Of a stretch of 61,230 bases of DNA, positions 6,463 to 16,824 are shown piece after piece. The DNA lies in IMG/VR virus record IMGVR_UViG_3300007734_000738, positions 1-61,230 of that record, one strand, 5' to 3'. The stretch is from a virus. Lineage: Duplodnaviria; Caudoviricetes. Below the pieces are notes generated by a model. That model did not search any database. It was not told where the DNA came from and saw only the letters and a program-made list of their open reading frames with translations. The first letter of the stretch is position 1. Each line of letters opens with the position of its first letter. The position numbers and the translations under genes were made by a program.

Positions 6463-6633
6463 ATGCATCAATGCTCGATCAATCTTGAAGATACCGACAC
6501 CGGCGAAATTGCCATGCGCGTGGTCCATGCCGACGGATACCAGCCCAATTCGCCCGCGCACAAACTCGCCAATCAAATCATCAAATGGCTCGACGAACAG
6601 GCGGCCTCCAAGAAGGATCTCGCCCATGAATAA
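6463..6633 (+). CDS. Small hypothetical protein
   Basis: AAGGAG RBS, operon-like packing. Confidence 0.55.
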   Translation: MHQCSINLEDTDTGEIAMRVVHADGYQPNSPAHKLANQIIKWLDEQAASKKDLAHE

Positions 6634-6868
6634 TCTCACCTTCGTGCCGACCGCTGATCTCCTCGACGCCCTGTTTGGCCGCTATGACAACGCGGTGTTT
6701 CACGGGACTCTAGCACGACCGGTCTCGGCCGACGACAAGAGCAAGCTCTACACCATTCGCACGACCGGCGATCAGTACTACGCCATGGGACTCGCCCAAG
6801 AAATCATCCTCTTCTGTCATGAAGAAACCGCGAAAACCCAATGTGATTTGGATCCCACCGATTTATGA
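6626..6868 (+). CDS. Small hypothetical protein
   Basis: AAGGA RBS; ATGA overlap with terL. Confidence 0.55.
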   Translation: MNNLTFVPTADLLDALFGRYDNAVFHGTLARPVSADDKSKLYTIRTTGDQYYAMGLAQEIILFCHEETAKTQCDLDPTDL

Positions 6869-9294
6869 GTCTCGTCGCCCCCACCTCAGAGGAAGCCATC
6901 GAACGCGCCCTCGCGCGCCGGCAATTGGAGTTCTACGAACCCTACCCCAAGCAGCGGGAATTTCACCGACTGGGCGGGGTACCGGGCGTCACAGACCGCC
7001 TGCTCATCGCGGCGAATCAATGTTTTCTTCCAAGTACTCCACTGGAAATGGCGGGGAAGACGCGCCTATGCCGAGAAGTGCTCGGCGAGGAAGGCTTTGC
7101 TGTGCGATCGTGGGATGGTGGATCGCGATGTGTCGAACCAGCCTCGCCTGTATTTCTAAAGGGCATTGCGCCAGGGTATCGGCTACAATTCGCCAACGGC
7201 CAGCACTTCGACTGTTCTGCAGCACATCACGTGCTGACCACAGAGGGCTGGATGACGGTATCCCGGCTTGTGCAGTCATCCTCCGGTGTGCTTTGTGCCG
7301 TCGATGGTCGCCAACGGCTTCTCGAAAATGCGTGGCATGATCCGGGTAAAGCACAAGATTATCGGGCCAATTATGCCACCCAATTCCATCGCGGTGATGG
7401 ACCTCTTCCTCTGCAGTTAGGTATCGTCCGAGCACCACGTCCATCACGAGACGATGTTCGGCAACTCGCCCGTTCCCGAGAACGGCACACGGATGCAGCG
7501 GTGCATAGACCATCACATACTCGTCATTCCCAAGCAACCGGCCCCCTTCCCATTCTGGATGACCCGTCCCAGATCGCGGCCCTGTGCGAGCGGTTTGAAG
7601 ACCCCATCCCGCAGCTCGACGTTCAATGGCCGATTTCGACACTCCGAGCATGGTCGCAATATGTGTCTGCGTATGGCCTTCGGCGAGCCGCGTTCGTAAC
7701 CGACCTTCGTCGACTTTCAACTTCCGCTTCTCGCGAGGCAGCCCTGCAATCTTTCGACGCTGCAGAAACGCTTGCACCATACAGCACGACAGACCGATCG
7801 TCTCGGCAATCTGCTTCCTGGTTTTCCCCTGGGCAAGTAAGGCTTGAATCGTTACGAGATGGTCTTCACACGGAGATCGTCGTCCCATATCGGACTCCTC
7901 AGTTAATAGGTGGAGGACGTATTATAGCCGTCATTCCTCTAGGAGTTCAGCCAATACTAGACTTCACGGTCCCCCGTACGCGCTGTTACGAATCTGGCGG
8001 TGTCCTGCATCACAATTCTGGGAAGACGTGGGCCGCCGGTGCCGAAACCGCCATGCACCTCACTGGACGCTATCCTGACTGGTGGGCCGGCCATCGGTTC
8101 CCCTCCGCCGTGGACTTTTGGGTCTCGTGTACCACGAGCCAATCCACTCGTGACGCCCCGCAACGGGTCCTCCTCGGAAAAGCTGACGACTGGGGTACCG
8201 GCGCGATCCCAGGGCGCTTCATCAAAGACATCAAGAAGGCCGTCCATGGGGTCTCCGACTCCGTCGAGACCGTGCTCGTGGAACACGCGAGCGGGAAGAC
8301 CTCACGTCTGGTCTTCAAGACGTACGATCAAGGGCGCCTCCGGTGGCAAGGAGAAACGCTCGACGGCATCTGGTTCGACGAAGAACCCCCGGCCGATATC
8401 TTCTCGGAAGGGAAGACCCGGCTGCAGGTCCGGCAAGGGATTCTCTATATCACCTTCACCCCGCTGTTGGGGATGACGGAGGTCGTGACACGCTTTTTGA
8501 AAGAAAAGCCCGCCGGTAGTGTCGTCGTTACCATGACGATTCACGACGCCCTCCACTACACGCCGGACCAACGACGACTGATTATTGCCGGGTATCCGGA
8601 GCATGAACGCAAAGCTCGATCAGAAGGCATCCCGATCATGGGATCGGGCCGGGTCTTCCCCATCGACGAAGAACATCTGAAAGAAGTGCCCATTCAAATC
8701 CCCGAGCACTGGCCACGTATCTGCGGCATGGACATCGGGTGGGATCACCCCACCGCCGCGGTCTGGCTCGCCTGGGACCGGGATACCGATACGGTGCATG
8801 TCTACGACGCCTATCGTGTCCGGGAACAAACGCCGATCGTGCATGGGGCCGCCATCAAAGCCCGCGGACCGTGGATCCCTGTGGCCTGGCCCCATGACGG
8901 CTTACAACATGACGCCGGCAGCGGGGCCGTCATCGCCAAACAATATCGCGAACAAGGCGTCAATATGCTGCGACTCAAGTCTACGCACCCCCCAGATAAG
9001 GGGAAGAAGGAAGGCACCGGCGGCTATGGCGTTGAAGCGGGCGTGATGGACATGCTCACCCGGATGCAGACGGGACGTTTTAGAGTCGCCAATCATCTCA
9101 ATGACTGGTTCGAAGAATTTCGCATGTACTATCGCCAAGATGGGTTGATTGCCAAGAAAGATGACGACCTCATGTCCGCCACCCGCATGGCCTGCATGAT
9201 GCTGCGACACGCGACCACGAAACGCGTCATCGCCGACGCGCCAGTCCTCAGCCGATGGGAACCGTCAGATCCCTCCATGGGGGCGTTGGGATAA
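6865..9294 (+). CDS. terL: Terminase large subunit (P22-like), intein-containing
   Basis: After intein removal: Walker A AANQ|SGKT, Walker B IWFDEEPP, TFTPLLGMTEVV, nuclease GMDIGWDHPTA and DDLMSATR. Confidence 0.95.
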   Translation: MSLVAPTSEEAIERALARRQLEFYEPYPKQREFHRLGGVPGVTDRLLIAANQCFLPSTPLEMAGKTRLCREVLGEEGFAVRSWDGGSRCVEPASPVFLKGIAPGYRLQFANGQHFDCSAAHHVLTTEGWMTVSRLVQSSSGVLCAVDGRQRLLENAWHDPGKAQDYRANYATQFHRGDGPLPLQLGIVRAPRPSRDDVRQLARSRERHTDAAVHRPSHTRHSQATGPLPILDDPSQIAALCERFEDPIPQLDVQWPISTLRAWSQYVSAYGLRRAAFVTDLRRLSTSASREAALQSFDAAETLAPYSTTDRSSRQSASWFSPGQVRLESLRDGLHTEIVVPYRTPQLIGGGRIIAVIPLGVQPILDFTVPRTRCYESGGVLHHNSGKTWAAGAETAMHLTGRYPDWWAGHRFPSAVDFWVSCTTSQSTRDAPQRVLLGKADDWGTGAIPGRFIKDIKKAVHGVSDSVETVLVEHASGKTSRLVFKTYDQGRLRWQGETLDGIWFDEEPPADIFSEGKTRLQVRQGILYITFTPLLGMTEVVTRFLKEKPAGSVVVTMTIHDALHYTPDQRRLIIAGYPEHERKARSEGIPIMGSGRVFPIDEEHLKEVPIQIPEHWPRICGMDIGWDHPTAAVWLAWDRDTDTVHVYDAYRVREQTPIVHGAAIKARGPWIPVAWPHDGLQHDAGSGAVIAKQYREQGVNMLRLKSTHPPDKGKKEGTGGYGVEAGVMDMLTRMQTGRFRVANHLNDWFEEFRMYYRQDGLIAKKDDDLMSATRMACMMLRHATTKRVIADAPVLSRWEPSDPSMGALG
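7004..7888 (-). CDS. HTH-HTH-HNH homing endonuclease encoded antisense within the TerL intein
   Basis: Two HTHs (GKTRKQIAETIGLS; GHTQTHIATMLGVSKSAI), HPEWEGGR, VAEHRLVM..VLGRYL..EEEVHHRDGIGWHNWPDNL; GAGGAG 6 nt before the ATG. Confidence 0.88.
   Translation of the reverse strand: MGRRSPCEDHLVTIQALLAQGKTRKQIAETIGLSCCMVQAFLQRRKIAGLPREKRKLKVDEGRLRTRLAEGHTQTHIATMLGVSKSAIERRAAGWGLQTARTGPRSGTGHPEWEGGRLLGNDEYVMVYAPLHPCAVLGNGRVAEHRLVMDVVLGRYLTAEEEVHHRDGIGWHNWPDNLVLYPDHATHFREAVGDHRRHKAHRRMTAQAGIPSSSPLWSARDVLQNSRSAGRWRIVADTLAQCPLEIQARLVRHIAIHHPTIAQQSLPRRALLGIGASSPPFPVEYLEENIDSPR
7021..8016 (+). mobile_element. Intein (332 aa) in the TerL P-loop, with no in-frame endonuclease
   Basis: Starts CFLPST; block B CSAAHHVLTTEGW; blocks F/G ILDFTVPRTRCYESGGVLHHN; +1 residue Ser. 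Confidence 0.92.
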
Positions 9295-11968: not shown

Positions 11969-12104
11969 GCCGTTCTTCTGTTCCGTATCGATCGCCTACG
12001 ACGCGCAGGGGCAGGTGGATCCCACGATGTATCGTGTCGCACGCGGCTGTCTCAAGGGTTTGAGCGCGCGCGTGCGTGCGTGTTATAAGGACACCCCCCA
12101 ATGA
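11913..12104 (+). CDS. o-spanin-like lipoprotein
   Basis: MSWMLLCSVWMMS|CAH lipobox-like sequence, overlapping the previous gene in another frame; implies a Gram-negative host. Confidence 0.5.
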   Translation: MSWMLLCSVWMMSCAHTPEPFFCSVSIAYDAQGQVDPTMYRVARGCLKGLSARVRACYKDTPQ

Positions 12105-14566
12105 GTCGAGACATTTCGTCCGTACAATTACCCGATGAGATTCAGGCGCTACTGTCTTCGGATGCCCATCCAGACGACGAACTCTTGCAGAACATTGGTA
12201 TAGCCCTCGCCGCAAAACGAACCGATGCGATTGCCTTCCGCAAATCGAGTGGCATCGAAGAGACCTGGACGATGTGCGAGGAAGCCTACATCGGGATCGA
12301 TGACATGAACCGGAGTGAATACAACGCCGGGAAGTGGGTCAAGTCCCCGACGTTGAATGGGCCGATCACCGCGCCGAACGGCGTCGTACGATCCTCAAAT
12401 GACGATCCACGCTCGACCGCCTTTGTCCGGTTGACGGGTCGGTATGTCGACGCCGGTGCGGCCAAGATCGGCGAGATCCTCCTGCAGATTGACGATAAAC
12501 CATTCAGCTTTTCCCCCGATCCCGTGCAGGATCTTCGTGACGGATTGAAAGATCACACGCCGGTCCATCATGAGGGCGTGCCACTGCAACGTACCCTCTC
12601 TCCGCAGGACCCCATGGGCACGCAGGGCGCCACAAATCCCGCATCCCTCCCCCTGACCACGAAAGACCTCGCACAAGAAGCCATCGACAAACTCAAAGAT
12701 TCCGCCGATCTCGCCGAGAAGCGGGTCTATGGATGGATGCTCAACGGACAGCACCATCGGGAGATGCGCAAAGTCATCTTTGACGCGGCACGTATCGGTG
12801 TCGGCGTATTGAAAGGTCCGTATCCGGATTTACGACGTCGTGTGCGCATCGAGACCGACGCCAAGGGCGCACGAAATGTCACGACCGACTACCAGTTGGT
12901 CCCGACTGATTGTTGGGTCGATCCCTGGAATGTCTATCCCGATCCGGGGTGTGGAGAAAACATTCGCGACGGCTCCTATTTGTTCGAACGCGTGCGGGTA
13001 TCGGACAAACAAATTCGCGATCTCAAGGATCTTCCAGGCTATCTGAACGAGCAAATTAAGAAAGTGTTGGCGCACCGACCCTCGACCGCGAAAGCGGATG
13101 GGCAAAATCCCAACGAACACGACACGCGCGAACAATACGAGATGTGGCACTTTCACGGCACCCTTAAACGCAGTGAGTTTGCCTGCATCAATCAGCAAGC
13201 CTGCGAGGACGTCCCGGCCTCGAACGACCTCGTCTATGCGGTCGTCACGATGGTCGATGATATCGTCATTCGCGGCACCATCAACCCCTTAAACTCCGGG
13301 GAAATTCCTTACCATTCCGTCCCCTGGCAGCGCCGCACCGGGTATTGGGCTGGTATCGGCGTGGCGGAACAAATCTTTGTGCCCCAACGCATCACGAATG
13401 CGGCCACCCGCGCGCTTCTCAATAACGGTGGTCTCTCGGCCGGACCACAGATTGTGGTGACGCGCAGCGCCGTCACCCCGGCGAATGGGGACTGGCGTCT
13501 CACCCCCAATAAGATTTGGTACGCCGCGAACGATGGCGTGATTGATGATGTGCGAAAAGCGTTTCTCTCCTTCGACATTGGCAATGTCGGAGATGAGATG
13601 ATGCAGATCGTGAACTACGGGATGAAACTCGCCGAGGAATCCACGAGCATTCCCTTGATCACGCAGGGGCAATCGGGCAACAGTCAGCCCGAGACCTACG
13701 GGGCTACGCAACTCCAAAACAATAACGCCAATCAATTGCTGCGGAGTATCGGGTACGCCTTTGACTATTACATAACCGAGCCCCTGGTCCGGATGTATTA
13801 TGAGTATCTCCTCCTCGACCCGAACGTCCCGGAGAACGAGAAGGGTAATTTTGCGATCGACGCGCACGGATCCATTGCGATGATCGAACGATCCATCCAA
13901 GATCAGACCATCGCTCAGATGACGCCATTGGCGCAAAACCCCATGTTCGGCGTGGATCCGAAGAAGTGGTTCGCCGTCTTGGCCAAGAGTAAACGCCTCG
14001 ATCCGCGCATGTTTCAGTACACGAAAGAAGAACAAGAGAAATTGGATCAACAGCCCAAACCCGAAGCCCCGGTCGTGGCAGTGGCCAAGATCAAAGCCCA
14101 GACCGCGCAGATGCAAATGCAGTTGGATGCGAAACTCGCGCAGGAAGAAAATACGCTCAATTTGGAAATCGAACGGTTAAATATCCAGGCCGCGAAGGAA
14201 ACCGAACAGTTACGGAATACCACCGCCCAACTGCGCGTCAAGATGGACACCGATCGCGATACCGTCTACGTCGAGAGTGAGATGAAGAAGGCGCAAGCCA
14301 ACTTCCAATCGGAAATGGAAACGCTGCGTCTCAAGAAAGAGTTGGCGATGATTGATTTCTCGGCCAAACATAATTTGAATATCGAAAATGTCAAAGCGAA
14401 ACTCGCCGACACCACGATGCGATTGCAGGCACAGAAAGAGTTGGCGGCGATGGACAAGCATGTACGTTTGACAGAACACACCACGCCATCCGCATCAGAT
14501 ATTTTGAAACCTCCAGCACAGGCCCCCGGTAAAGCCCAGGCGGGTCGGGAATTCTCACAATTGTGA
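12101..14566 (+). CDS. Portal protein
   Basis: 821 aa; FDAARIGVGVLKGP, VDPWNVYPDP, long C-terminal coiled-coil barrel; genomic position. Confidence 0.88.
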   Translation: MSRDISSVQLPDEIQALLSSDAHPDDELLQNIGIALAAKRTDAIAFRKSSGIEETWTMCEEAYIGIDDMNRSEYNAGKWVKSPTLNGPITAPNGVVRSSNDDPRSTAFVRLTGRYVDAGAAKIGEILLQIDDKPFSFSPDPVQDLRDGLKDHTPVHHEGVPLQRTLSPQDPMGTQGATNPASLPLTTKDLAQEAIDKLKDSADLAEKRVYGWMLNGQHHREMRKVIFDAARIGVGVLKGPYPDLRRRVRIETDAKGARNVTTDYQLVPTDCWVDPWNVYPDPGCGENIRDGSYLFERVRVSDKQIRDLKDLPGYLNEQIKKVLAHRPSTAKADGQNPNEHDTREQYEMWHFHGTLKRSEFACINQQACEDVPASNDLVYAVVTMVDDIVIRGTINPLNSGEIPYHSVPWQRRTGYWAGIGVAEQIFVPQRITNAATRALLNNGGLSAGPQIVVTRSAVTPANGDWRLTPNKIWYAANDGVIDDVRKAFLSFDIGNVGDEMMQIVNYGMKLAEESTSIPLITQGQSGNSQPETYGATQLQNNNANQLLRSIGYAFDYYITEPLVRMYYEYLLLDPNVPENEKGNFAIDAHGSIAMIERSIQDQTIAQMTPLAQNPMFGVDPKKWFAVLAKSKRLDPRMFQYTKEEQEKLDQQPKPEAPVVAVAKIKAQTAQMQMQLDAKLAQEENTLNLEIERLNIQAAKETEQLRNTTAQLRVKMDTDRDTVYVESEMKKAQANFQSEMETLRLKKELAMIDFSAKHNLNIENVKAKLADTTMRLQAQKELAAMDKHVRLTEHTTPSASDILKPPAQAPGKAQAGREFSQL

Positions 14567-15765: not shown

Positions 15766-16824
15766 ATGCAGACTTTTTCACTCAGTACCGCCCGTATCGC
15801 CAAGTATAAAGGCGAGATTCTGGCTCATGCTGTCCCGATGGAAGTGCTTGGTCGCCAGGGCCGGCAGGTGCGTCGGATGCCCAAGAACGCCAGTGACACG
15901 TATGTGGCCCGTCGGTTTCTCCCCTACGGGGCGACCGCGGCGTCCCCGAACACCTTCTACGCGAACGGCACCGGCGATCGAGGGAACGTGATCGTGCAGG
16001 CCCATCAGACGCAGGACGGCGTCACGCCGAATCCGGATACGATCACCCCGCAGGATAGTCAGGTGGTCATTCAGCAGTATTCCTGCTTGTATGGTTTTAC
16101 CGATAAAACCTACAATCTCTACGAGGATGACATCCCCGAGGAGATGATCAAGCAGGTCGGCGAACGCGTCACGTTGGTCAACGAGTTGATCAACTGGGGT
16201 GTCTTGCGCAGTTGCACCAATCAGTATTACGGCGGCACGGGCACTACGTTGGCCACGGTCAACGGCGGGATTACGCTGGGATTCTTGCGGAAGATCGCGA
16301 AGAGTCTCCAGGCCAATCACGCGAAGCCGGTGAATTCTGTGTTGAAAGCGAGCGGCTCCTACGGGACGTCCCCGGTGCCGGCTGGCTTCACGATGTTCAT
16401 TCATACGGATGCGGAACCGGATGTGCGTGACGTGCCCGGCTTCATCCCCGCCGAGAAGTATGCCAGCGGCACGCCGATGGAACACGAGATCGGCATGATC
16501 GAACGCACGCGTATCATCACCTCCCCGGATCTGCCGTCCTTCCAGGATGGCGGCGCCGCGATCGGTGCCACGGGGTTGTACAGCACGACCGGCACGTCGA
16601 TCGACGTCTATCCGTTTGTGGTCATCGCGCAGGATGCCTGGAGTCAGATTGCCGTGCGCGGGATGGAATCCTTGGCCCCGACCTACTTGCCTCCGGGTCT
16701 GCCCAGCAAGTCGGATCCGTTCGGTCAGAGAGGGTACGCCGGCACCATTTGGTGGAAGGCGGCCATGGTTGAAAACAACGGTTGGATGGCAGTCGGCAAC
16801 GTCGGCCTGAAGACCCTGGCCTAA
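15766..16824 (+). CDS. Major capsid protein (N4-gp56-like family)
   Basis: DGVTP..D, IQQYSCLYGFTD, EKYASGTPMEHEIG, KSDPFGQRGYAGTIWW. Confidence 0.88.
   Translation: MQTFSLSTARIAKYKGEILAHAVPMEVLGRQGRQVRRMPKNASDTYVARRFLPYGATAASPNTFYANGTGDRGNVIVQAHQTQDGVTPNPDTITPQDSQVVIQQYSCLYGFTDKTYNLYEDDIPEEMIKQVGERVTLVNELINWGVLRSCTNQYYGGTGTTLATVNGGITLGFLRKIAKSLQANHAKPVNSVLKASGSYGTSPVPAGFTMFIHTDAEPDVRDVPGFIPAEKYASGTPMEHEIGMIERTRIITSPDLPSFQDGGAAIGATGLYSTTGTSIDVYPFVVIAQDAWSQIAVRGMESLAPTYLPPGLPSKSDPFGQRGYAGTIWWKAAMVENNGWMAVGNVGLKTLA

Follow-up and report, generated by a model that had tools for sequence, protein, structure and literature searches.

In the virus record IMGVR_UViG_3300007734_000738 of IMG/VR (Caudoviricetes), the gene encoding the large terminase subunit (TerL) is interrupted in its Walker A motif by an intein. 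The whole record, 61,230 nucleotides long, was analysed and is called the window hereafter. In our reading, to which we give a probability of about 0.8, this is a class-1 intein whose endonuclease slot holds a separate homing endonuclease gene of the helix-turn-helix (HTH)-HNH type on the opposite strand, and the open reading frame (ORF) of this gene extends, under selection, over the N-terminal Hint splicing subdomain. A previous sequence-only reading of this DNA had proposed a P-loop intein at 7021-8016 and, on the reverse strand (7888 to 7004), an independent nuclease gene facing a middle that is nonsense in the sense frame. All the coordinates that it gave proved exact on re-reading. The independent antisense gene and the nonsense middle are supported by the pattern of selection, by a conserved start codon, Shine-Dalgarno (SD) sequence and -10-like box and by the open sense frame. 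Its estimate of novelty was too high, because antisense LAGLIDADG and VSR-like endonucleases in inteins are already published, and its own caveat that alternate-frame endonucleases of phage inteins might have been reported was justified (Gosselin, Arsenault and Gogarten, bioRxiv 10.1101/2025.01.02.630785).

The terL precursor ORF (809 residues) is located on the plus strand at 6865-9294. Its Pfam domains, Terminase_6N (2.9e-26, residues 385-603) and Terminase_6C (6.2e-17, residues 621-779), start no earlier than residue 385, and residues 53-384 constitute the intein (332 residues, 7021-8016), which separates an N-extein (6865-7020) from a C-extein (8017-9294). The Walker A motif thus reads ...LIAANQ|CFLPST...GGVLHHN|SGKT.... 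In the intein-less TerL of Xylella phage Xfas53, which shows 52% identity to the C-extein in an alignment, the junction AANQ|SGKT is uninterrupted (...LLAAANQSGKT...). Judged against this protein, removal of the intein would leave a continuous and conserved TerL.

The splicing blocks, described as intact in the sequence-only reading, are indeed present. Cys1 (7021-7023), the histidine H69 and the C-terminal residues H330, H331 and N332 (VLHHN|SGKT) are invariant in 18 out of 18 aligned inteins. H69 is found in SAAHHVLT (S-A-A-H) in the window and in CTRxHRVLT in the family consensus, a motif which we take to be the block B TxxH. The N-terminal Hint subdomain (intein residues 1-95; 7021-7305) was modelled by AlphaFold2 (AF2) as a beta-rich domain with a predicted local distance difference test score (pLDDT) of 90-95; it resembles the Ssp and Npu DnaB and Mtu RecA mini-inteins in Foldseek (E around 1e-5) and matches the profile of 4o1r_A (2.1e-5). 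The C-terminal subdomain (residues 262-332; 7804-8016) ends in GGVLHHN before the +1 Ser of SGKT, is modelled as beta strands (pLDDT 76-93) and shows a normal variability of wobble positions (third-position entropy, H3, of 1.48-1.58). The AF2 models of the intein and of the nuclease were both built on 18-sequence alignments. When the profile of the 18 inteins was compared with the PDB, the Npu and Ssp DnaB mini-inteins were found (2.1e-5 and 3.4e-4), with separate matches at the N- and C-terminal ends and none between. Foldseek returned 18 matches to the intein model at E ≤ 1e-3, all of them Hint splicing domains; the best have E around 1e-5 (6frg, 4o1r and 3ifj, probability 1.00), and the mini-inteins align over 94-104 columns. 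None of these matches covers the sense-frame middle (residues 96-261; 7306-7803), which is a read-through of the antisense gene and of which residues 98-178 are modelled with a pLDDT below 50. Family searches of both frames gave no Pfam or PHROG match for the whole intein or for the piece 7300-7890 in the sense frame (the only entry listed, Tachylectin at E = 0.12, is noise), which agrees with the earlier view that the sense middle contains no known domain. No Pfam intein model matched the intein, and a tblastn search of cultured phages with the sense intein found no match. Compared with the DnaB and RecA mini-inteins (PDB 4o1r, 1mi8, 6frg, 3ifj), the Hint fold is common to both, but the host gene is different and a 165-residue insert occupies the endonuclease position, where they have none. 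The interruption of TerL is, as modelled, a class-1 intein with a Hint fold and an endonuclease slot without any recognisable in-frame domain; its splicing is predicted.

The antisense gene encodes a protein of 294 residues and occupies 7004-7888 on the minus strand (ATG at 7888-7886, stop at 7006-7004), and both strands are free of stop codons over this interval, as had been noticed. Its first HTH module (residues 1-50; 7739-7888), modelled as three helices with a pLDDT of 90-96, exists only in the longer inteins (310-332 residues). The second one (residues 55-100; 7589-7726; pLDDT 81-90) exceeds the Pfam cut-offs of HTH_7 (28.6 bits vs. 23.8) and HTH_23 (26.4 bits vs. 24.6). The HNH nuclease domain follows (residues 115-207; 7268-7546), with E144, H145, H165, N173, N177 and H187 invariant in 18 out of 18 homologues and a core of three strands (117-119, 125-128 and 141-143) and a helix (144-153), modelled with a pLDDT of 87-95. 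The protein matches the PHROG HNH endonuclease families phrog_20891 (2e-20), phrog_10730 (1.2e-15) and phrog_7545 (6.5e-14), so that the HTH-HTH-HNH architecture first read by eye is borne out. After the HNH domain comes an insertion of 15-19 residues specific to the window (residues 213-231; 7196-7252; pLDDT < 50), absent from the other 17 aligned homologues; on the other strand it corresponds to 15 extra sense-frame residues, AVDGRQRLLENAWHD. The C-terminal tail (7007-7195) lies opposite the N-terminal Hint subdomain, is modelled as helices over residues 240-290 (pLDDT 78-94) and is absent from free-standing relatives. The whole model (mean pLDDT 79.7) comprises two three-helix modules, an HNH-like strand-strand-helix core, a low-confidence insert and a helical tail.

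A tblastn search with the antisense protein retrieved 124 phage records, mostly annotated as free-standing HNH endonucleases of Mycobacterium, Streptomyces and Pectobacterium phages. The similarity extends over residues 16-192; none of these matches reaches 80% of query coverage, and the alignments listed end at residues 181-193. With the free-standing HTH-HNH endonucleases of Mycobacterium phage Thibault (gp148) and Pectobacterium phage Ymer, the protein shares the order of domains and 34-49% identity over the second HTH and the HNH domain, whereas these proteins end about 10-25 residues after the HNH domain, lack the tail of about 90 residues and are not embedded in another gene. The family is large, with 16,742 HTH-HNH proteins at E ≤ 1e-10 in a search of 1.84 billion representatives. 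A sequence-profile search of the PDB with the nuclease returned HTH proteins only. By its sequence, the antisense protein is an HTH-HNH endonuclease akin to the free-standing phage HNH endonucleases, and its nuclease activity is predicted. In 32 inteins of the close family described below, A and T are more common at the third positions of the nuclease gene (A 0.227, T 0.256) than in the TerL exteins (A 0.122, T 0.166), as expected for a gene of foreign origin or low expression.

Then, we asked which of the two frames is selected in the middle of the intein, where the sequence-only reading had expected purifying selection on the antisense frame. When 18 antisense genes were aligned by codon, the third antisense position proved the most variable: over the HTH/HNH region its entropy is 1.2-1.85 bits, vs. 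0.45-1.1 at the second position, and in the sense frame it is the second codon position that varies most across homologues. At antisense four-fold degenerate sites of this region the mean entropy (1.49, n = 51) is near that of sense four-fold sites in the exteins (1.62-1.68). Since antisense third positions vary most in the middle, the antisense frame is the one under purifying selection there, and what the sense strand encodes in it is a by-product. Even so, the sense frame is kept open: no sense stop exists in any of the 18 loci, compared with 1.7-6.7 expected per locus after synonymous resampling of the antisense codons, and the probability of finding none ranges from <0.001 to 0.14 per locus. 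For the window, 1000 such trials gave a mean of 3.88 sense stops, with zero, the number observed, in 0.4% of the trials. MAFFT protein alignments underlie these entropy and codon statistics. The sense middle is rich in R, S, P, A, G and Q (0.50 vs. 0.37), and its hydrophobic fraction is scarcely lower (0.27 vs. 0.29). Selection for a hydrophilic sense middle through avoidance of A at antisense third positions is not seen: A accounts for 0.227 of these positions in the nuclease gene and for a smaller share, 0.122, in the TerL extein.

The signals upstream of the antisense gene are also conserved. As already described, the window carries GAGGAG (7895-7900, minus strand), 6 nucleotides before the antisense ATG, and TATAAT (7921-7926, minus strand), 32 nucleotides before it and inside the sense Ile-Ile codons (ATT ATA) of block F; both were read directly. 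The distance from the antisense start to the end of the intein is 128 nucleotides in 11 out of 17 loci, 125 in four, 122 in one and 113 in one (L006); L008, with no ATG at the expected place, was omitted from this table. In homologues, purine-rich SD-like motifs are found 5-10 nucleotides upstream of the start, the proteins with two HTH modules open with a conserved MG[KR][KR]S, and the sense Pro codon facing the antisense ATG is CCA in 15 out of 16 cases. A TAnnnT hexamer is present at a fixed position, about 32 nucleotides upstream of the ATG, in 21 of the 32 close-family members. The second block F codon of this hexamer is NTA in 21 out of 25 cases with Ile, Leu or Val, vs. 9.8% of such codons in the exteins (10 out of 12 vs. 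a background of 11.2% in the first set, four codons being involved: ATA, GTA, CTA and TTA), counts that are not phylogenetically independent. The antisense ATG, the SD sequence and the -10-like box are thus conserved in these alignments through the choice of synonymous sense codons. The nuclease gene stands alone on the minus strand within a module transcribed from the plus strand and therefore needs its own promoter; a -10-type promoter embedded in the block F codons is plausible.

To evaluate how far this arrangement is conserved, relatives were sought in several ways. Seven TerL proteins carrying the same insert came from a protein search in which the intein region was the query. Single-protein scans of viral contigs, with the intein or with the nuclease, found nothing, whereas a search of viral contigs with an alignment (A1) found 21, of which 20 carry the intein and the last is cut off. 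In these 20 contigs and in the window, the sense intein is continuous and free of stops, with the same frame of the antisense strand open as well, at GC contents of 0.45-0.64; the antisense ORF thus proved intact in homologues, as the sequence-only reading required, and the proteins align over their full length. In addition, a scan of metagenome contigs, in which six-frame ORFs were searched with profiles of both frames, yielded 80 further loci. An antisense HNH ORF lies inside a continuous sense intein in 68 of them, the remaining 12 having a short nuclease-free intein, or nothing. At every locus with set boundaries, the relative frame of the intein and of the antisense ORF is identical. Two subfamilies can be distinguished. 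The close family comprises 32 distinct complete inteins, including the window, which start with CITPWT or similar and in which the antisense ORF reaches intein nucleotide -14 to 28. The distant family comprises 33 distinct inteins, which start with CLGGETxI and in which the antisense ORF stops 58-226 nucleotides inside the intein. At least 65 distinct inteins of environmental phage terminase genes therefore carry an antisense HNH gene, in one relative frame. The same Walker A site is also occupied by seven distinct mini-inteins of 127-157 residues without nuclease (L053, L069, L071, L072, L077, L096 and L100), whose N-termini resemble the distant subfamily (CLGGETxI). The combination of an intein and an antisense nuclease gene is, on these comparisons, a conserved family and no accident.

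Some loci were set aside in these analyses. L015, L017 and L020 (near-duplicates or duplicates) and the truncated L021 are missing from the 18-sequence analyses. The first boundary pass over the metagenome loci left 15 without boundary and skipped four; 12 were recovered later, among them, for the close family, L025, L026, L028-L032, L040, L045 and L046 (L029 being an exact duplicate), and L054, L057, L073, L074 and L101 carry no assigned boundaries. The close-family set omits L021, L033, L035-L038, L042 and L047, which are truncated, belong to the distant subfamily or, for L042, start with Ser. In this last locus (L042:1279-2784), a close-family intein apparently begins with Ser instead of Cys (...AGNR|SSSPRS...) and the antisense HNH ORF is kept (257 bits).

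The sequence-only reading had treated the antisense ORF as confined to the middle of the intein. This view has to be abandoned, as the ORF crosses the whole N-terminal Hint subdomain, with a signature of dual coding in this subfamily. In 32 out of 32 close-family members it runs about 90 codons past the HNH domain, over the entire subdomain, and its usual stop is a TGA supplied by the Cys-Ile-Thr codons (intein nucleotides 5-7). The window intein starts with Cys-Phe-Leu instead, and there the ORF continues 14 nucleotides into the extein. The relative frame is such that the sense wobble base is the second base of the antisense codon, the wobble of each frame facing the second position of the other. 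At sense wobble positions, the entropy amounts to 1.33-1.76 in the exteins, the first six intein codons and the C-terminal Hint subdomain, and to 0.68-1.29 from about intein codon 7; the end of the antisense ORF marks the start of the drop. In the N-terminal Hint subdomain, conserved sense codons have an entropy of 0.79 (n = 20) at their four-fold sites, vs. 1.68 (n = 39) in the exteins and the C-terminal Hint subdomain (32 inteins; Mann-Whitney P = 3e-6), and the set of 18 inteins gave a similar contrast (0.84, n = 23 vs. 1.62, n = 49; P = 1.8e-6). The distant family, with the same site, fold and frame, offers a natural control: its N-terminal Hint subdomain is unconstrained (1.86, n = 8).

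A selected protein tail is the most likely explanation of this constraint, that is, a translated extension of the nuclease overprinted on the splicing domain. A non-coding origin was also considered, in which the tail would be untranslated or a functionless run-on and the synonymous constraint would reflect a role of the RNA or DNA (such as forming the 3' end of the antisense message or stabilising it, pairing of sense with antisense, or serving as a binding site). Run-on does occur, as the last 20-40 antisense codons of the distant subfamily overlap the N-terminal Hint subdomain without constraint (1.59-1.88), the constraint being confined there to the part past this subdomain. Yet the constrained stretch of the close family is about 95 codons long, with its beginning at the end of the antisense ORF, and it coincides with an antisense frame free of stops down to intein nucleotide -14 to 28 in 32 out of 32 distinct inteins. 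Antisense stops over the subdomain are absent from 16 of the 18 loci, vs. 0.44-5.1 expected (in L004 and L010 the ORF ends 21 and 15 nucleotides earlier), and several columns have an invariant third base, beyond what avoidance of antisense stops requires. The tail is also predicted to be helical with a pLDDT of 78-94. No relative of the tail was found outside the family, which would suit a non-coding origin, as would the divergence of the tail in the window itself. In the search of 1.84 billion representatives, the 15 best matches (301-396 bits) reach profile position 260-271, most of them from position 1; the scores then fall to 204 bits, most matches end near profile position 195-200, and the free-standing relatives have no tail. 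No usable match came from the ESM Atlas when it was searched with residues 190-274 of L013, which form its tail. Taken together, we consider a non-coding origin of the constraint unlikely. More tentatively, and at somewhat less than even odds, the tail of about 90 residues may have arisen as a domain, through overprinting, opposite the N-terminal Hint subdomain, so that about 280 nucleotides would encode two folded parts with both frames functional. If so, the overlap would lock the nuclease and the splicing domain together, neither of them being deletable or open to reshuffling without harm to the other, and this lock-in could explain why the pair stayed intact over deep divergence and did not decay to a mini-intein.

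Several results weigh against our reading of the locus as a whole. Pfam HNH_3 matches the antisense protein below its curated cut-off (17.8 vs. 24.8 bits), and the best Foldseek match of the whole nuclease model, I-HmuI (1u3e), is not significant (E = 0.41). In the sense middle, residues 180-250 are modelled by AF2 as helices with a pLDDT of 57-86. The entropy and codon statistics count related sequences as independent. The tail of the window is an outlier in the family (insert of 15 residues, divergent sequence, long branch), and the openness of its own antisense frame over the N-terminal Hint subdomain is not significant (P0 = 0.137). The TAnnnT hexamer is missing from the fixed position in 11 of the 32 close-family members. 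A consensus scan of 6600-8400 detected no sigma-70-like promoter, no terminator and no -35 element (the lack of a good -35 had been remarked on before), and the sequence occurred in no RNA run among the sequencing runs searched. These last two results could also be expected from a decaying relic, in which an inverted or invading nuclease gene is no longer expressed and its frame stays open only through GC-rich composition and the openness of the sense frame; the GC content of the window is 56%, and long shadow ORFs are frequent in it. Such a relic is very improbable. It is already contradicted by the codon-position data, the wobble signature being on the antisense and not on the sense frame, and by catalytic residues that are invariant in 18 out of 18 homologues. 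Moreover, the antisense ORF is open at loci with as little as 45% GC, and its ATG, SD sequence and -10-like box are maintained by synonymous choices in the sense frame.

The functioning of such a locus can be proposed as follows. The sense strand would be translated straight through, the middle of about 165 residues being an unselected and partly disordered read-through. The N- and C-terminal Hint subdomains would then fold together, splice out the whole insert and restore TerL. The nuclease would be made from an antisense message of its own, with its own ATG and SD sequence and with a probable promoter of the -10 type within the codons of block F, as the conservation of these signals suggests. 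By analogy with its family, it would cut intein-less terL alleles, into which the intein and the nuclease gene would be copied as a unit. In the subfamily of the window, the nuclease ORF would have been extended by about 90 codons across the N-terminal Hint subdomain, ending at or just beyond the first codons of the intein, and selection on this extension would make about 280 nucleotides encode two proteins on opposite strands. The presence at one site of empty alleles, nuclease-bearing inteins and mini-inteins fits a homing cycle.

We also investigated whether the intein and its host gene share the same history. The tree of the C-extein (first 165 residues) and the tree of the nuclease have five shallow pairs in common; L019, with only 65 residues of C-extein, was omitted. 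An approximately unbiased (AU) test of the nuclease data leaves the grouping of the window with L001, as in the extein tree, unrejected (p-AU = 0.236). With congruent trees and this test result, the present set shows no trace of a recent horizontal movement such as marks active homing, which is a further point against our reading, and a recent horizontal transfer of the intein is unsupported. The same congruence would be expected from a domesticated nuclease, one that no longer homes, is inherited vertically with terL and is kept for a service to the phage, such as packaging with the terminase or the exclusion of rival phages. Purifying selection persisting over 35-45% amino-acid identity, longer than a simple cycle of invasion and decay predicts, points the same way. 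Small HNH proteins encoded beside terminase genes aid cos cleavage in HK97-like phages. However, the antisense protein resembles free-standing homing endonucleases of the HTH-plus-HNH_3 type and not these small terminase-associated proteins, the occurrence at this one site of intein-less alleles and of mini-inteins without nuclease is consistent with a homing cycle, and co-conversion of the flanking extein during homing would also produce congruent trees near the intein. Homing is therefore kept as the main reading, and domestication, as its rival, seems to us decidedly improbable.

Antisense endonuclease genes in inteins have precedents, which are compared here on the basis of those parts of the cited texts that were available to us. 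Inteins with antisense LAGLIDADG or VSR-like endonucleases, or with EndoVII-like ones in another frame, are described in actinobacteriophage genes for DNA polymerase, minor capsid protein, TerL and thymidylate synthase, the secondary ORF typically lying outside the splicing domain; the same preprint cites antisense LAGLIDADG inteins from Gorbalenya 1998 and Gogarten 2002, and in-frame HNH inteins from 1997 (bioRxiv 10.1101/2025.01.02.630785). The antisense LAGLIDADG inteins (Synechocystis DnaX, a Chloroflexus SpoVR-like protein, an actinophage minor capsid protein) likewise have a contiguous and presumably splicing intein in which the endonuclease has an ORF of its own, on the opposite strand and between the splicing blocks, but they differ in the nuclease (LAGLIDADG vs. 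HTH-HNH), the hosts and the host genes, and their ORF is typically clear of the splicing domain. In the VSR-like and EndoVII-like inteins of actinophages, some of them in TerL, a nuclease of free-standing type is also encoded in another frame or strand and the in-frame middle is unstructured in predicted models; the nuclease family is different, and no overlap with the splicing domain or dual-coding signature is reported in the available parts of that text. These are cultured phages, whereas the window comes from a freshwater metagenomic phage whose TerL is nearest to that of Xylella phage Xfas53. The in-frame HNH inteins of 1997, known through the preprint, also tie HNH to an intein, but within the intein polypeptide and not as a separate antisense gene. 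In fractured genes (Dassa et al. 2009, PMC2677866), the halves of a split intein flank a free-standing GIY-YIG or Vsr-like endonuclease gene; host gene and intein are broken there into two ORFs, while the sense frame here is continuous, without a stop in any member examined. The ShiLan insertion in a phage DNA methylase (Arsenault et al. 2025, PMC11855218) similarly hides an HNH endonuclease in an alternative frame while the host frame stays open, but on the host gene's own strand and without a splicing domain. Among open-access papers and bioRxiv, no intein with an antisense HNH gene came to light, and none is among the types named in the main text of the 2025 preprint, although its supplements, which list every type, could contain one; the same literature yielded no report of a family of such size and age or of an overlap with the splicing domain. 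The principle of an antisense endonuclease gene in an intein is thus already known, and it is for the HNH type and for the overlap with the splicing domain that no precedent was found.

Inteins are thought to gain nucleases through invasion by free-standing homing endonuclease genes, and antisense arrangements are rare snapshots of this process. With the present family, HNH would join the nuclease families seen antisense in inteins. At least 65 distinct inteins in one relative frame indicate that the arrangement can be a large, old and stable lineage and not a transient accident, and comparison among them shows cleanly on which strand selection acts in each part. The subfamily of the window seems to offer a naturally occurring example of extended antiparallel dual coding, set in the least forgiving frame, with a conserved enzyme fold opposite a newly extended tail. 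As its sister, the distant subfamily, provides an internal control, it may become a tractable system for the origin and upkeep of overlapping genes. Such nuclease genes are easily missed, because gene callers annotate only TerL at these loci.

In the window, terL belongs to a head/packaging module on the plus strand, together with a portal/adaptor-like gene (12101-14566) and the gene of the major head protein (15766-16824). The terL stretch (6865-9294) was found at 95-100% of sampled words in 13 DNA runs from five studies of lake-water or viral metagenomes (2018-2025). Its recurrence is not independently shown by these runs, since 12 out of 13 are flagged as possible sources of the record. Four runs that partly cover the stretch (X16-X19) gave only short contigs identical to the window, none of which joins across the intein, and they have no bearing on intein-less alleles; the gap of X19 over the intein is simply a stretch that its reads do not cover. 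The sole hint of a host is a 64-kb contig (L024) binned to a metagenome-assembled genome labelled Bradyrhizobium sp., whose intein DNA is identical to that of the viral contig L006 (L006/L034); a binning artefact is possible.

Finally, TerL is broken a second time in eight homologues (L006, L008, L010, L012, L013, L014, L016 and L017), at about residue 161-170 of the C-extein, after TFTPL...F at the end of the ATPase part (for example L012:1590-3254 and L013:4536-5262). The window TerL has no such split. The two parts are separate ORFs, which adjoin in different frames in L006, L016 and L017 and are otherwise separated by 0.5-1.7 kb of small ORFs. One of the inserted ORFs (L012, 2133-2657) contains a Cys/His-rich motif of the CIDHNH type and has, by eye only, the look of an EndoVII/HNH-type protein.

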